This document shows, piece after piece, positions 3,528 through 17,113 of a DNA stretch of 17,113 nucleotides; position 1 is the first letter of the stretch; the number at the start of each line of letters is the position of its first letter. Location: NCBI GenBank assembly GCA_035531095.1, contig DATKTL010000042.1, positions 1-17,113 of the forward strand, written 5' to 3'. Below the pieces are notes generated by a model that was not told the DNA's origin, ran no database searches, and worked only from the letters and a program-made list of their open reading frames with translations. The position numbers were made by a program, and so were the translations under genes. The DNA comes from Minisyncoccota bacterium (GTDB taxonomy: Bacteria; Patescibacteriota; Minisyncoccia; Phycocordibacterales; Phycocordibacteraceae).

Positions 3528-3632
3528 AATGCGTCCTTTCATAAGACTTGCATGGGCTTCGGGACCTTCTGTTCCGAAAGCGATACTAGCACGCTGGAAA
3601 CCAAAAGACACCCTTACGGGTGTCTTAATTTG

Positions 3633-3717
3633 TGCGCAGGGGGAGACTTGAACTCCCATGCCCATAACAGGCGTTACCACCTCAAGGTAGTGCGTCTACC
3701 AATTTCGCCACCTGCGC
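3633..3717 (-). tRNA. tRNA-Leu (anticodon GAG), class II with long variable arm
   Basis: Acceptor GCGCAGG/CCTGCGC, 3-bp D stem GCG/CGC, anticodon loop TTGAGGT, long variable arm, T arm GGGAG-TTCAAGT-CTCCC. Confidence 0.9.
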
Positions 3718-3734
3718 AAACGAGAACACTACGA

Positions 3735-4238
3735 CTATACCACGACTTCCGCTGCCGCTTCCACCTCCGGGGCGACGACTTCAGCGGCTGCCTCTTCTGC
3801 TTCTACCGGCACTTCCTCCGGTGCGATCGTCTCGTCGCTCTTCAGGTGCAGCATGCGCGCCCCGCGGAGCTGGCGGCGGACCGCCTTCGCCGCCTTCTCG
3901 CGGATGAAGTAGAGCTTGGCGCGGCGGACTTTCGAGCGCTTCACGATCTCGATCGAGTCGATGGACGGGGTGTAGAGCGGGAACGTCTTCTCGACGCCGA
4001 TGCCGGAGAGCGTCGTGCGGACGGTGAACATCGCGCCGCTCTCGGTACCATGCTTCACGGAGATGACGAGGCCTTCGAAGACCTGCTTGCGGACGTTCTT
4101 GACGATCTTCTCCTTCTTGTCGGCGCCCTTACCCTTCTTGAGGTCGACGATGTTTTGCACGACGCGCACCGTATCGCCCGCGCGAATACCAAGTTTCGCG
4201 CGCCCATCGGCGTTGACCGGAGTTATGACCTTCTGCAT
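3735..4238 (-). CDS. rplS: 50S ribosomal protein L19 with an acidic Ala/Glu/Val-rich C-terminal extension
   Basis: ...GDTVRVV..I...K.......QVFEGLVISVKHGT.SGAMFTVR....GIGVEKTFPLYTPSIDSIEIVKRSKVRRAKLYF.R. matches the L19 core. The start at 4238 (MQKV...) is preferred because TGaTACAGT lies 8 nt upstream. The ORF track starts at 4256. Confidence 0.9.
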   Translation of the reverse strand: MQKVITPVNADGRAKLGIRAGDTVRVVQNIVDLKKGKGADKKEKIVKNVRKQVFEGLVISVKHGTESGAMFTVRTTLSGIGVEKTFPLYTPSIDSIEIVKRSKVRRAKLYFIREKAAKAVRRQLRGARMLHLKSDETIAPEEVPVEAEEAAAEVVAPEVEAAAEVVV

Positions 4239-4246
4239 ATTCGCGC

Positions 4247-4255
4247 ACTGTATCA
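4247..4255 (-). promoter_or_regulatory. Extended -10 TGaTACAGT, 8-nt spacer, then the ATG of rplS (leaderless arrangement)
   Basis: Minus strand reads gcgTGaTACAGTgcgcgaatATG. Confidence 0.45.
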
Positions 4256-4279
4256 CGCCGGGTGATTAAGAGCAAATAC

Positions 4280-5023
4280 TCAGCCCTTACCCGAAAAACG
4301 GCTCTGTGCCGCGACGAAATCACCGGGAAGCGGCGCTTCGAAGGTGTGCCGCTCGCCCGAAGGGAGCGTGATCGAGAGCGAAAAAGCGTGGAGCGCCTGA
4401 CGCGAGAAGCCGAGGAGGCACGGTTTCCCTTTCGCGTAGAGCTTATCGCAAACGACGGGGTGACCGAGGTGTTTGAAGTGCACGCGGATCTGGTGCGTAC
4501 GGCCAGTCTTCGGGCGCGCTTCCAGATGCGCGACCTTTTCATCCTGCTCCTCGTCGACGCCGCGCGCGAGCACCCGCCAGTCGGTCACGGCCGCGCGATG
4601 CTTCTTCCCTTCCTCTGCGCGCGCGATACCCCAACGCGGCGGCACCGCGCGGATGCGCACGATCTCAGCCTCGATGGTGCCGCTATTCGCGCGCGGATGG
4701 CCGTAGACGAATGCGTGATACGTTTTTTCGGTCGTGCGGTTCTGGAACTGTTCTTTGAGGAAAGCATACGCCTCCGGAGTCTTCGCCAGGATCATCACGC
4801 CAGAGGTATCGCGGTCGAGCCGATGCACGATGCCCGGGCGCGCTACCACTTCCCCTTGCGGCGACGTCCACGGTTCGCCTACGCCCGCCATCTGCGGGTA
4901 CTGCGCGAGCACCCACGCGGCGACCGACGGCTCGTCGGTGCGGCCATCGCTGTGCACGATAAGCCCGGCCGGCTTATCGATAACGAGCACATCAGCGTCT
5001 TCATAGAGGACGGAGGGGTTCAT
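4280..5023 (-). CDS. RluA-family pseudouridine synthase (no S4 domain)
   Basis: VLVIDKPAGL.VH, the catalytic HRLDRDTSGV motif, and ...RTHQIRVH...G.P...D..Y. Confidence 0.9.
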   Translation of the reverse strand: MNPSVLYEDADVLVIDKPAGLIVHSDGRTDEPSVAAWVLAQYPQMAGVGEPWTSPQGEVVARPGIVHRLDRDTSGVMILAKTPEAYAFLKEQFQNRTTEKTYHAFVYGHPRANSGTIEAEIVRIRAVPPRWGIARAEEGKKHRAAVTDWRVLARGVDEEQDEKVAHLEARPKTGRTHQIRVHFKHLGHPVVCDKLYAKGKPCLLGFSRQALHAFSLSITLPSGERHTFEAPLPGDFVAAQSRFSGKG

Positions 5024-5741: not shown

Positions 5742-5774
5742 ATGAACCTATACGTCTTTGCCTTTAGTTTCAAG

Positions 5775-5847
5775 TGGGCGCTAGAGGACTCGAACCTCTG
5801 ACCTACCCGGTGTAAACGGGTTGCTCTACCAACTGAGCTAAGCGCCC
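5775..5847 (-). tRNA. tRNA-Val (anticodon TAC)
   Basis: GGGCGCT TA GCTC AGTTGGTA GAGC A ACCCG TTTACAC CGGGT AGGTC AGAGG TTCGAGT CCTCT AGCGCCC A. Confidence 0.92.
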
Positions 5848-5848
5848 T

Positions 5849-5923
5849 CGGACGGTACTAGAGACTCCTTCGGAGGAAGCATAACCAGCTGGTTACAGCC
5901 TCCACCGACTGAGCTAATCGCCC
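5849..5923 (-). pseudogene. tRNA-like remnant: an intact-looking 5' acceptor strand and D arm, with non-canonical anticodon and T regions
   Basis: GGGCGATTAGCTCAGTCGGTGGAG(G)C matches a tRNA 5' third. It continues with the palindrome GTAACCAGCTGGTTAT (6- or 8-nt loop, no U33) and a CCTCCGAAGGAG hairpin instead of a GTTCGAATC T-loop. The 3' ACCGTCC pairs only imperfectly with the 5' strand. It fills exactly the tRNA-sized gap between tRNA-Leu(CAG) and tRNA-Val. Confidence 0.4.
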
Positions 5924-10510: not shown

Positions 10511-10645
10511 GCCCTCGTATGTAGGCATACTTGGGCTCGTTCGGAGAATCCGCCTACACGAGGACGTGCAGTCGCATTTCCACCACAAGGGCACTTCTTA
10601 GTTTCTAACTCGCTGTGCTCGTAAGAAACTAAAGTCGCTCACTTC
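10511..10645 (+). ncRNA. Structured leader element upstream of tRNA-Arg(GCG), beginning with a copy of that tRNA's first 8 nt
   Basis: GCCCTCGT at 10511-10518 equals 10646-10653. GTATG-TAGG-CATAC hairpin at 10517-10530. GCTCGTTCGG at 10535-10544 is identical to 16609-16618. A 12-bp helix joins 10513-10526 to 10552-10563. A 10-bp hairpin CTTAGTTTCT/AGAAACTAA(A)G spans 10597-10634. The tail TCGCTCACTTC abuts the tRNA. Confidence 0.45.
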
Positions 10646-10720
10646 GCCCTCGTCGTTCAATGGATAGGACGGCTCCTTGCGGAGGAGCTGATGCAGGTTC
10701 GATTCCTGCCGAGGGCACCA
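10646..10720 (+). tRNA. tRNA-Arg (anticodon GCG), CCA encoded
   Basis: GCCCTCG TC GTTC AATGGATA GGAC G GCTCC TTGCGGA GGAGC TGAT GCAGG TTCGATT CCTGC CGAGGGC A CCA. Confidence 0.9.
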
Positions 10721-10767
10721 TATTAAAAAAACGGCATGATGCCGTTTTTTTTAATATGGTGCCCTCG
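10710..10767. terminator. 58-nt near-perfect palindrome / bidirectional terminator that includes the last 11 nt of tRNA-Arg(GCG)
   Basis: CGAGGGCACCATATTAAAAAAACGGCA-TGA-TGCCGTTTTTTTTAATATGGTGCCCTCG, with A7 and T8 runs around a CGGCA/TGCCG core. Confidence 0.7.
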
Positions 10768-10802
10768 AGCACGCGCGGGGCGCGTGCGTGCAGGAATCGA
10801 AG
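10757..10802 (-). repeat. Inverted partial copy of the tRNA-Arg(GCG) 3' part (T-loop to CCA), interrupted by a 22-nt GC-rich palindromic insert
   Basis: Minus strand reads CTTCGATTCCTGC[ACGCACGCGCCCCGCGCGTGCT]CGAGGGCACCA, compared with the tRNA's GTTCGATTCCTGCCGAGGGCACCA. Confidence 0.6.
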
Positions 10803-10887
10803 ACCTTGCGAGCGTTTTATGGAGCGGAGCGAACAGAAAATCCGCAAGGTGTACTGAAACGGTACGTTTCGATAAGCGTACTCGCGG

Positions 10888-10904
10888 TCCTGCCGAGGGC
10901 ACCA
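10888..10904 (+). repeat. Direct 17-nt copy of the tRNA-Arg(GCG) 3' end (TCCTGCCGAGGGCACCA)
   Basis: Identical to 10704-10720. It lies 92 nt upstream of the repeat-protein gene. Confidence 0.7.
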
Positions 10905-10979
10905 GCTAGCGCTCATGCAAATGACCGAGATGCCTCGATCATAGGAATGCGTGCGATAAGGAGACTCGTATGCACGACA

Positions 10980-13159: not shown

Positions 13160-13231
13160 GCTCTCGTCGTTCAACGGATAGGATAGCCCCCTCCGAAGGG
13201 GCTGATGACGGTTCGATTCCGTCCGAGAGCA
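13160..13231 (+). tRNA. tRNA-Arg (anticodon CCG)
   Basis: GCTCTCG TC GTTC AACGGATA GGAT A GCCCC CTCCGAA GGGGC TGAT GACGG TTCGATT CCGTC CGAGAGC A. The 5' half is nearly identical to that of tRNA-Arg(GCG). Confidence 0.9.
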
Positions 13232-13234
13232 CTG

Positions 13235-15497: not shown

Positions 15498-16442
15498 ATG
15501 GAACATGACGCATGGTTTTTCATAGGCGTATTCGTCTTCATATTCCTCATCTGGATCGCCACCGGCGGCCCATTGCACCCGATCGCCTTCTCTGGCCCGC
15601 GACTCGCACTGCCGGGGCAGCTCGGCGGCGGTTCCTACCTCTCGCTACCCCGTTCTCCCTATGGCATCGGCGGCACTGACGCTGCGCTGCCGGGCAGCTC
15701 CTCAGGCGGCGGTTCGATCGGCAGCGCCGACACCTCTCTCATCGGCGGGACGACCTTCGGCGACCTCTCCCCGTACCACGGCATCGTGACGATGGATCAT
15801 TCCGTCTCGGGTGCCGGGTCAGCCGACCCGCGCAATGAATACATCGAGATACGCGTCGCGCAGGACGCGAATGTGCCGGTCGATATTTCCGGATGGACGC
15901 TCATGAGCGAGGCGAGCGGCAGCTCGTCTAGCATACCGAAAGGGACGGAGACCCCGACGTCCGGCATCGTGAACGCGGCACAAGACATCGTCCTCACTGC
16001 CGGGGAGCAGGCTATCATCATTTCCGGCCAGTCCCCCATCGGCGCCTCGTTCCGAGAAAATAAGTGTATCGGCTACTTCAGCGGCTTCCAGAGATTCACC
16101 CCGTCCCTGCCGCTCAACTGCCCCGCACCGTCGGACGAACTCGCGTCGTTCTACGGCACCGGTTATATCCGCGATGCCTCCTGTATCGATTATGTGAACA
16201 CGCTCTCGCGCTGCCAAGCGGCGCTCACGCCGCCCACCACCGTCTCAGGCATGTGCCAGGGGTTCCTGGTGAAGTACCTCAATTACAACGGCTGCGTCGA
16301 TGCGCACCGGAGTGATGCTGATTTCAAGGGCGACACCTGGCACGTCTACCTCGGCCGGAGCGACTCGATGTGGCGCCCGCAGCATGAAGTCGTGAAGCTG
16401 CTCGACACGACCGGCAAGACCGTCGACGCCTTCACCTACTAG
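15498..16442 (+). CDS. Membrane-anchored lamin-tail-domain (LTD) protein with a 6-Cys C-terminal region
   Basis: N-terminal TM helix (WFFIGVFVFIFLIWI), Gly/Ser-rich linker, then NEYIEIRV.....VDISGWTL, the LTD hallmark (EY.EI.N......L.GW.L). The C-terminal part carries 6 Cys. Confidence 0.8.
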   Translation: MEHDAWFFIGVFVFIFLIWIATGGPLHPIAFSGPRLALPGQLGGGSYLSLPRSPYGIGGTDAALPGSSSGGGSIGSADTSLIGGTTFGDLSPYHGIVTMDHSVSGAGSADPRNEYIEIRVAQDANVPVDISGWTLMSEASGSSSSIPKGTETPTSGIVNAAQDIVLTAGEQAIIISGQSPIGASFRENKCIGYFSGFQRFTPSLPLNCPAPSDELASFYGTGYIRDASCIDYVNTLSRCQAALTPPTTVSGMCQGFLVKYLNYNGCVDAHRSDADFKGDTWHVYLGRSDSMWRPQHEVVKLLDTTGKTVDAFTY

Positions 16443-16495
16443 AAAAAAGCGGTAAAAAAGAGTAAGTTAGAGAAACGAGGAATAAGCCCGAGTTC

Positions 16496-16660
16496 GCTCC
16501 CGTATCTTCGAAGACTCGATACGAAGGCTTCGCTCGGTGGAAACAAAATCAAGAAGACTTGTTTTGTTTCGCCTCGCTTCAGCTCCCGTATGGAGTACCA
16601 TACAGTGAGCTCGTTCGGCGAGAAAGAAATCGAGCGAGCTCGTTTCTTTCTGCCTCACTC
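16496..16660 (+). ncRNA. Two tandem structured units (86 and 79 nt) upstream of tRNA-Lys, each starting with the first 9 nt of tRNA-Lys
   Basis: GCTCCCGTA occurs at 16496, 16582 and 16661. Both units share head, short hairpin, GC(T)TCG(C/T)TCGG linker, a 13-bp hairpin with a bulged T and a tetraloop, then a GCCTC.CT.C tail. Sequence differences in the stems are compensatory. Confidence 0.55.
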
Positions 16661-16733
16661 GCTCCCGTAGCTCAGCTGGTAGAGCAGCTCCCTTTTAAGG
16701 AGAAGGTCGCAGGATCGTAACCTGCCGGGAGCA
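16661..16733 (+). tRNA. tRNA-Lys (anticodon TTT) with an atypical T-loop ATCGTAA
   Basis: GCTCCCG TA GCTC AGCTGGTA GAGC A GCTCC CTTTTAA GGAGA AGGTC GCAGG ATCGTAA CCTGC CGGGAGC A. The cloverleaf is otherwise canonical. Confidence 0.85.
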
Positions 16734-16780
16734 CATGAGCCACAAACACCTGCCCTGCGGCAGGTTTTGTGCTTATGTGC
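16731..16780 (+). terminator. Long imperfect hairpin / rho-independent terminator starting in the last 3 nt of tRNA-Lys
   Basis: Core ACCTGCC-ctgc-GGCAGGT followed by TTTGTG. The outer arms GCACATGAG(C)CACAAA(C) and TTTGTGCTTATGTGC extend the stem. Confidence 0.65.
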
Positions 16781-16963
16781 TGGCCGGAGCTATGTGCGAG
16801 TCACCGAGTACGGCGAGGCGGGGTCGAGAGCGCTTAGCGGATTGCGAATACCTGGAGCAATTCGGTTAGCGACTCGTGACCATGTGGAGTGTGCGGACCG
16901 CGGGGTTATCCTTCGCAAGGGATATCCTCAAATTACTGCTATCGCATGGTAGTTTGGGATAGG

Positions 16964-17113
16964 TTAGGTTTGCACTTCGATCAGAAGTGGCGCGTGATCA
17001 GAGACTTCGTCAGGCAACACTTTGAAGTCTGTGACCGATATCCCTTTGGTTACGAACGCATAATCCGCATGTTTCTCCGGTTTCGTGTAGAACGACGTGC
17101 GCGTCGAAGACAC
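16964..17113 (-). CDS. 3' end of an endonuclease/exonuclease/phosphatase (EEP) family gene running off the right edge
   Basis: Minus-strand frame reads ...TSFYTKPEKHADYAFVTKGISVTDFKVLPDEVSDHAPLLIEVQT*. The terminal SDH.PL motif is the conserved C-terminal catalytic His block of EEP enzymes. It is absent from the ORF track because only 49 codons are visible. Confidence 0.55.
   Translation of the reverse strand: MSSTRTSFYTKPEKHADYAFVTKGISVTDFKVLPDEVSDHAPLLIEVQT

Follow-up and report, generated by a model that had tools for sequence, protein, structure and literature searches.

Two structured units lie in tandem directly upstream of the transfer RNA (tRNA) gene tRNA-Lys(UUU), at 16496..16660 of a 17,113-nucleotide (nt) stretch from a Minisyncoccota bacterium (contig DATKTL010000042.1 of assembly GCA_035531095.1; the whole stretch is called the window below), and they belong to a widespread and apparently undescribed family of such units in Patescibacteria. 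Each unit opens with a copy of the first nucleotides of an RNA gene that follows and carries the inverse of that copy a short way downstream, so that the two fold into a hairpin resembling the acceptor stem of the tRNA. We read the units as a small non-autonomous insertion cassette, found at the outer edge of stable-RNA genes, which would form a leader co-transcribed with the gene and be cleaved away by RNase P; at roughly 45%, our confidence in this reading falls somewhat short of even odds.

Anatomy of the units

The 9-mer GCTCCCGTA, with which tRNA-Lys begins, was found in the window at 16496, 16582 and 16661 only, the copies being 86 and 79 nt apart. A chance expectation of 0.15 was calculated, and none of 200 shuffles held three copies. 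The threefold occurrence of this head at tRNA-like spacing, which had been pointed out in a first-pass annotation made from the sequence alone, is thus far above what chance would give. The hairpins described there were also present, namely CGTATC/GATACG (16501-06 and 16518-23) and GTATGG-AGTA-CCATAC (16588-16603), followed by the hairpins of 9 plus 4 base pairs (bp) at 16540-16570 and 16621-16651, and folding and alignment agreed with the first-pass view that the two units share one architecture. Against shuffles, the gain in folding was large for unit B (z = -4.9) and moderate for unit A (z = -2.2).

Folding and alignment gave each unit the order P1, linker J, P2 and tail, followed by the mature first nucleotide (+1) of the downstream RNA. 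P1 is an 11-12-bp hairpin in which a 7-nt head plus UAU(G/C) and a small loop are followed by (C/G)AUA and the head's complement; the first 7 bp of this hairpin are those of the cognate acceptor stem. J is UCGUUCGG, the GG of which opens P2, a long hairpin of 13-17 bp that is variable in sequence and closed by CC, while the tail, CCUCACUUC (UCACUUC), abuts +1. This anatomy departs from the first-pass description, in which the units had no 3' acceptor strand. What had been taken as a linker (GGCTTCGCTCGG / GAGCTCGTTCGG) begins with the complement of the head, GAGC pairing with GCUC, so that head, short hairpin and complement form a single P1 and the units do carry a 3' acceptor-like strand. The short hairpin, formerly viewed as a mimic of the D arm, is instead the top of the P1 stem, and the limits of the second hairpin and of the tail had to be redrawn, with P2 running from the GG of ..TCGG to the CC of the former tail.

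Unit A (16496..16581, + strand; 86 nt, head GCTCCCGTA) is of P1-loop subtype 2 and matched the R1 covariance model with 39 bits. In its P1 (16496..16528), drawn from the fold and from P1 covariation, GCUCCCG plus UAUC is joined by an 11-nt loop to GAUA plus CGAAGGC, an imperfect complement of the head. Alignments place its J, TTCGCTCGG, a variant of TCGTTCGG, at 16529..16537; the P2 core, GAAACAAAA-U-CAAG AAGA CUUG UUUUGUUUC (16540..16570), is supported by the fold, by inverted repeat I6 and by P2 covariation in the family, and the tail GCCTCGCTTCA (16571..16581) abuts the head of unit B in the sequence. Unit B (16582..16660, +; 79 nt) is of P1-loop subtype 1 and matched the R1 model with 50 bits. 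Its P1, GCUCCCGUAUGG AGUA CCAUAC(A)GUGAGC (16582..16610), follows from fold, alignments and covariation; its J (16611..16618) is the family consensus TCGTTCGG in the alignments; its P2 is GGC-G-AGAAAGAAA-U-CGAG CGAG CUCG UUUCUUUCU-GCC (16617..16654; fold, inverted repeat I7); and its tail, TCACTC (16655..16660), ends exactly at the tRNA +1, as read from the sequence and from the tRNA start assigned by ARAGORN. The tRNA-Lys(UUU) whose first 9 nt are copied in both units occupies 16661..16734 (+; ARAGORN, and 63.6 bits with the Rfam tRNA model).

A third unit, at 10511..10645 (+), had been proposed in the first-pass annotation and proved real, fitting the same R1 model with 48 bits. It stands before tRNA-Arg(GCG) (10646..10720, +; ARAGORN, Rfam), the first 8 nt of which, GCCCTCGT, are copied at its start. 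Its sequence is divided into P1 (10511-10536), J (10537-10544), P2 (10543-10581), an extra hairpin module (10582-10634) and the tail (10635-10645), and this two-module form recurs in L082, such labels denoting individual loci of relatives or metagenomes.

Structural constraint

Among 75 distinct sequences, 89.8% of P1 cells were paired, with a covariation score of 0.376 as against 0.116 in shuffles; none of 500 shuffles scored as high, and the signal was lost when the partner columns were slid. Positions 1-3 and 7-10 of P1 were paired in 95-100% of the sequences and position 5 in 53%. In P2, 17 of 24 predicted pairs stay paired through changes on both sides. Although the P2 stems differ completely, conservation is seen in J, the tail and the apical loop of P2. 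The compensatory base changes reported at first for the window units were therefore upheld on large alignments for both helices. So was the view that the units form a structured family and are not decaying tRNA pseudogenes, since neither ARAGORN nor Rfam recognises a tRNA in them and they are under structural constraint.

A strand test, comparing G.U with A.C counts and sense with antisense fold energies, displayed no preference, with 64 G.U pairs in the sense and 75 in the antisense orientation and the antisense fold more stable in 34 of 50 units, and it does not separate a role as RNA from a role as DNA. In the minimum-free-energy fold of the whole precursor, the first head pairs with the 3' acceptor strand of the tRNA, and in such a model the three identical heads and their complements would compete with one another. 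The earlier suggestion that a unit head competes for the tRNA 3' acceptor strand is, on these computed energies, thermodynamically plausible.

Distribution and targets

The relatives comprised 35 loci retrieved by means of the neighbouring Mur ligase, all from metagenome-assembled genomes of Patescibacteria (Kaiserbacteria, Paceibacterota) with shared synteny. Members of the family were found again in the relatives, each with a head copied from its cognate RNA, and about 100 more units were found in Kaiserbacteria and Paceibacterota genomes and in groundwater metagenomes. A lack of further copies and a lack of covariation support, both named in the first-pass annotation as grounds for refutation, are therefore contradicted by the results. 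Units precede tRNA-Lys in L001, L004, L007, L008, L009, L030, L032 and L033, tRNA-Arg(UCU) in L005 and L030, and tRNA-Arg(CCG/GCG) in L018, L024, L028 and L030. The subtype of unit A stands alone before tRNA-Lys in L001, L007, L008 and L009 and before tRNA-Arg(UCU) in L005 and L030, and that of unit B stands alone before tRNA-Lys in L004, L030, L033 and L097 and is truncated in L005.

A covariance model of P1 plus J, run over 593 kb, gave matches solely on the sense strand and directly upstream of tRNAs, bar two exceptions, which were units before a conserved structured RNA of ~165 nt upstream of ruvB. The specificity for tRNAs that had been assumed for the units is refuted by this finding of the same cassette before a non-tRNA RNA. 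The ~165-nt RNA has paired ends and occurs upstream of ruvB in 20 relatives (e.g. L033:11146-11310 and L017:7582-7756) with 75-90% identity, and no Rfam family matched it, even at E <= 10. A resemblance of this RNA to 5S rRNA motifs is conjectural. Units precede it in L033, L005, L001 and several metagenome loci, their head being a copy of the first 9 nt of the RNA.

The metagenome scan, whose pattern consisted of the P1 top of one single subfamily plus J, returned 84 loci, about 79 of them true units; some 48 different heads occur among these, and the RNAs that they precede include at least 18 tRNA species. Sense targets were tRNA-Arg, Lys, Leu, Met, Ile, Phe, Ala, Glu and Thr, and tRNA-Gly was a reversed target; the ~165-nt RNA and a tRNA-Arg-like 11-mer beside a protein gene were further targets. 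About 93% of units are sense-oriented, lie downstream of a promoter-like block and end exactly at the mature +1. Unit length peaks at 77-83 nt. Of 72 distinct units, 58 have a direct repeat of 8 or 9 nt, and a single one has a repeat of 10 nt. A scan of viral contigs with the generic pattern ATAC..GCTCGTTCGGAGA gave 5 matches, all of them chance occurrences inside coding sequence. Rfam at gathering thresholds found only tRNAs in the whole window, a search of 16380-17113 at E <= 10 added chance-level matches only, and a full-text literature search yielded no description of such an element. The initial remark that no described element has this layout has thus held for Rfam and for the literature searched.

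Signs of insertion

Filled and empty sites could be compared directly. At tRNA-Lys, the filled loci L001 and L007 differ from the empty loci L002 and L006 by exactly a unit plus GCGCCCGTA, and orthologous filled and empty sites have exact boundaries, the difference being the unit and an extra 8-9-nt copy of the head. About a dozen sites at the ~165-nt RNA are empty, and those of L033, L005 and L001 are filled. In many relatives that lack a unit, a promoter-like block ends 7-10 nt before the +1 of tRNA-Lys (L003, L012, L017, L022). As a separate observation, tRNA transcripts of this clade may have hardly any leader where no cassette precedes the gene.

The corresponding block of the window, TAGAAAAAAG..GAGTAAGTT (16441..16472, +), directly follows the stop codon of the upstream open reading frame (ORF) and is conserved in relatives. 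A sigma-70 consensus scan recognised no promoter in it, nor in the counterpart blocks of empty sites, so that it is conservation which suggests a promoter function. The spacer between this block and the first unit (the AGAGAAACGAGGAATAAGCCCGAGTTC region, 16473..16495, +) is possibly the remnant of an older unit tail; L004 and L033 have a stretch like ACGAGGA..GG..CTC/TTC before the unit, and empty sites lack it.

The head follows a direct - inverted - direct order in every complete unit. In tRNA units, reverse-complementing the 9-mer, UA included, gives the 3' strand of P1, which is no copy of the tRNA's 3' region; an origin of this strand by copying from that region was rejected, as it is preceded by an AUA that complements UAU and does not match a T stem. 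Tandem arrays mix subfamilies (the window, L032, L054). The P1 loops of units A and B place them in two different subfamilies, each of which stands alone at tRNA-Lys elsewhere, so that the array in the window did not arise by a recent tandem duplication. Target RNAs also show shuffled combinations of loop type and P2 lineage. Nested units were found at L018:1185-1292, where the inner unit lies in the P1 loop, and at L094:1927-2072, where it lies in the outer P2 and has a 5-nt repeat of its own, GTGCC. Truncated units without P2 occur in L004, L005, L006, L008 and L056, and in the L050 group the head has decayed while the rest of the unit is conserved.

At tRNA-Gly(GCC/CCC), tandem cassettes are reversed and lie tail-first against the 3' end of the gene. 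The repeat is here the 9-mer GTGCGGGTA, antisense of positions 66-74 and 2 nt out of the acceptor register, and a copy of the 9 nt beside the insertion point accounts for this shift better than a functional acceptor mimic does. The junction of these cassettes falls exactly after the terminal C of ..A73-C74. Most tRNA genes of the window (e.g. at 16731-16734, 13229-13232 and 5774-5777) end in ..A73-C74 and then diverge, CCA not being fully encoded. The combined evidence fits a direct and an inverted copy of the 9 nt beside the insertion point, and the earlier idea of a recombination target agrees with part of it.

A proposed inserted cassette and its alternatives

On the reading that we favour, the units are cassettes inserted beside stable-RNA genes. 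The order observed at each site begins with the terminal 8-9 nt of the gene in direct copy (7 nt plus U, often A), followed by a short palindromic spacer, the inverted 9-mer, UCGUUCGG, hairpin P2, CCUCACUUC and then the gene itself, which is intact. P1 is the fold of the two copies, direct and inverted, and before a tRNA it resembles the acceptor stem. The cassette would be transcribed as a 5' leader and removed by the RNase P cut at the tRNA +1, which would make it nearly harmless. During transcription P1 would form first and lock up the 'anti-acceptor' strand, which if free would invade the acceptor stem of the tRNA; host selection for keeping this strand in P1 would explain both the covariation of P1 and the mismatch at position 5. 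J, the tail and P2 may be recognition features for a putative mobilising enzyme or recombination process, and the inverted target copy could act as a guide or as an attachment-site mimic, by analogy with folded single-stranded attachment sites.

A number of observations weigh against an inserted cassette. No mobilising gene was found and no recombinase gene was linked to the units, and the 84 metagenome loci yielded no autonomous, ORF-bearing copy. Within one genome or contig, among the contigs examined, no near-identical units occur, the units differing in loop type and P2, so that nothing points to bursts of recent copying. Those at orthologous sites appear old, and the pairs of P2 are kept through compensatory change, traits to be expected of a functional RNA sooner than of dead selfish DNA. 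Of 13 differences between unit head and RNA head, 8 keep P1 paired, 4 of these by way of a compensating partner. Mismatches in P1 cluster at position 5 rather than along the stem. The repeat of sense units begins exactly at the mature +1, which a DNA transposase has no obvious means of sensing, and the units have no terminal inverted repeats, their ends (UAUG.. and ..CACUUC) not being inverted repeats of each other. The reversed orientation goes back to one or two evolutionary events, all at tRNA-Gly, and the mechanism that would generate direct and inverted copies of the target is itself conjectural.

Much of this would be expected of a host-functional leader RNA, acting in cis as a folding switch or processing module, which we consider the main alternative, if a doubtful one. 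In such a switch strand 2, the inverted copy, would pair either with strand 1, giving P1, or with strand 3, the 5' strand of the RNA, and this choice would decide on formation of the terminal helix 3:4 and on maturation by RNase P, with J, P2 and the tail binding a protein or tuning the switch. P1 may also, in a variant of this proposal, be a minihelix substrate of RNase P, releasing unit-length decoys or small RNAs. The sense orientation of most units after a promoter-like block and up to the mature +1, the strong covariation of P1 and P2, the maintenance of J, tail and P2 apex despite wholly different P2 stems, the position-5 clustering in a P1 otherwise paired at 1-3 and 7-10, and the compensation of some head differences within P1 all argue for it. 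In modelling, the domain-swapped fold is thermodynamically competitive. RNase P measures the length of the stacked acceptor and T stems, and the 11-12 bp of P1 equal that length. RNase P RNA is present in candidate-phyla-radiation bacteria, in two thirds of cases without the CCA-binding motif (PMC8172020). A leader RNA is at odds, however, with the sporadic presence of the units among orthologous genes of close relatives, from which it follows that the cassette is not essential, and with the persistence of truncated, nested and head-decayed copies, the shifted register of the reversed tRNA-Gly 3'-end copies and the absence of a G.U strand bias. Moreover, selection alone offers no route to a matching head and complement at about 48 targets.

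The remaining alternatives are weaker. An attenuator or insulator, in which P2 is an intrinsic terminator that limits read-through into the RNA gene (or out of it, in reversed copies) and P1 its anti-terminator-type partner, is improbable. Before the ~165-nt RNA, P2 does have the form of an A-tract, GC stem and U-tract, as in AAAAAAGAGACGGG-AAGA-CCCGTCTCTTTTTT of L033, and in the reversed tRNA-Gly copies it is the first hairpin after the tRNA; yet most P2 hairpins have no U-tract (e.g. L059, L060), there is no conserved alternative pairing of the P2 strands, and a terminator scan of 16496-16660 found none in either window unit, for which P2 was accordingly rejected as a terminator. Least probable of all is descent from decayed tandem tRNA duplicates or from attachment-site scars of tRNA-targeting integrases. 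The unit length of 77-83 nt is near that of a tRNA, tRNA-end fragments are common around the window tRNAs, and a LAGLIDADG endonuclease gene adjoins tRNA-Lys in relatives. Similarity to the tRNA nevertheless ends after the first 8-9 nt, the helices covary, and the same linker, P2 architecture and tail stand before unrelated RNAs, which independent decay cannot give; a tRNA pseudogene or tandem duplication was rejected on these grounds. In this region ARAGORN found nothing but the true tRNA at 16661, and the Rfam tRNA model had no match in 16496-16660 even at E <= 10. Hammerhead, twister and hepatitis delta virus (HDV)-type ribozymes, box C/D and H/ACA guides, retron RNA, the P1/internal guide of group I introns, and the ends of IS200/IS605 and Helitron/IS91 elements were compared by eye for their anatomy and dropped, because their defining motifs are absent or the full regenerated gene would be unaccounted for.

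Tentatively, the units could also represent a new, Patescibacteria-specific class of element, able to recognise where a stable-RNA gene has its outer edge and to form the gene's terminal helix anew as a hairpin. This might take the form of a mini mobile element that bears a guide and inserts by a new chemistry, giving direct, inverted and direct copies of the target, or of a domesticated 'anti-acceptor / anti-anti-acceptor' switch gating the maturation of tRNA and other stable RNAs.

If mobile, the cassette would be a very small element, bearing its own target in inverted form and homing precisely to the borders of genes for structured RNAs, and it would point to a new enzyme or repair pathway in Patescibacteria, whose genomes are reduced. 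If it is a functional RNA, it would represent a widespread and apparently undescribed gating of tRNA maturation by acceptor-strand competition, with the prediction that unit-length RNAs are released by RNase P. The family also accounts for many 'orphan' tRNA-head fragments that confuse the annotation of Patescibacteria genomes, flags the conserved ~165-nt RNA and supplies a covariance model seed for genome annotation.

Other features near tRNA genes

Downstream of tRNA-Lys, a terminator hairpin (16730..16781, +) has an extended stem that takes in the last bases of the tRNA; it comprises a terminator-like site at 16748-16765 and inverted repeats I2 and I9. In L001, an ORF of 277 amino acids with a LAGLIDADG_3 domain (3824-4657, -; E = 4.5e-08) comes directly after tRNA-Lys and resembles a free-standing homing endonuclease. 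An equivalent ORF is present in L002, L006, L007, L014, L016, L018, L026 and L027, and in these relatives, L001 included, tRNA-Lys is inverted relative to the Mur ligase gene.

Two further elements of the window, here termed X (10758-10905, +, and 2183-2325, -), lie behind the terminators of tRNA-Arg(GCG) and tRNA-His, respectively. They start with the reverse complement of the last 17-25 nt of the tRNA, that is, the acceptor 3' strand and T arm, and end with a direct copy of the tRNA 3' end including (A)CCA. A long terminal helix encloses 2-3 hairpins, with z about -5 on both strands, and the inner motifs GGAATCGAAAGGCGGAGC and TTCGATAAGCGTACTCGCGGTCC recur in L009, L035 and L044. The X elements could be a 3'-end counterpart of the units, and were the units a new element class, those behind tRNA-His and tRNA-Arg would embody the same principle at the 3' end.

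At 5848-5923 (-), a 20-nt copy of the 5' end of tRNA-Val, GGGCGATTAGCTCAGTCGGT, lies 76 nt upstream of tRNA-Val and is followed by a GGAGG..CCTCC hairpin. As neither J nor the tail motif accompanies it, this is a different kind of tRNA-head duplication. An 86-nt tRNA at 3632-3717 (-), for which ARAGORN left the anticodon undetermined ('tg') and Rfam gave 49 bits as tRNA, has the look of a class II (Leu-like) tRNA whose anticodon loop is unusual.

Comparison with known systems

In general form the units are like MITEs (miniature inverted-repeat transposable elements), repetitive extragenic palindromes and bacterial interspersed mosaic elements (REP/BIME), Correia elements and enterobacterial repetitive intergenic consensus (ERIC) sequences, which are likewise short (35-150 nt), hairpin-forming, non-coding, intergenic and patchy in distribution. 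They also share with the MITE and REP types a short direct target repeat, co-transcription with neighbours and tandem or nested forms, and the 8-9-nt direct repeat with its exact empty-site boundaries amounts to the target-site duplication of a MITE. In contrast to these types, however, the units lack terminal inverted repeats, carry an inverted copy of their own target and keep a fixed orientation toward the stable-RNA gene whose edge they exactly adjoin. Unlike MITEs they have no near-identical copies within a genome, among the contigs examined, and no known associated transposase, and no transposase-bearing parent element was found in about 1 Mb of related DNA. REP sequences of the IS200-IS605 type are imperfect palindromes with a conserved 5' tetranucleotide that are mobilised by a Y1 (HUH) transposase without target duplication; the units contain hairpins, but also show a target duplication.

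Known structural RNAs offer partial parallels. RNase P accepts hairpin and minihelix substrates, external guide sequences and tRNA-like signals (pre-4.5S RNA, mascRNA), in which a complementary strand makes an acceptor-like helix. The units resemble them in the 11-12-bp acceptor-like helix, the 5' leader and the single-stranded 3' extension; in contrast, they have no 3' RCCA or T-loop, the helix is followed by UCGUUCGG, and it copies the neighbouring gene rather than forming a stand-alone signal, cleavage being a prediction. With the trp attenuator and the T-box (1:2 / 2:3 / 3:4) the units have in common three mutually exclusive strands upstream of a decisive helix and, in the models, a competitive swapped fold. 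Here, however, the decisive helix is the RNA's own terminal stem, and leader peptide, specifier loop and T-box sequence are absent; Rfam scans of the window found no T-box.

Among structure-targeting elements, class C group II introns insert behind terminator hairpins and IS1397 in the loops of REP sequences, both being large and bearing a ribozyme or an ORF. Insertion in a fixed orientation beside or inside stable hairpins is a feature that the units share with them, as in the nested units of L018 and L094, whereas class C introns and IS1397 do not duplicate and invert their target. The attP hairpin of CTX phage, used by XerCD, and the attC sites of integrons are folded single-stranded attachment sites that mimic a duplex target, and integration of the CTX type through a folded hairpin leaves a direct - inverted - direct order of cores, with structure conserved above sequence. 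The units show this same order, together with a hairpin that mimics the target. CTX attP and attC, in contrast, have fixed recombinase-binding arms and one target, while the copied 7-9 nt of the units differ from target to target within an element of only ~80 nt.

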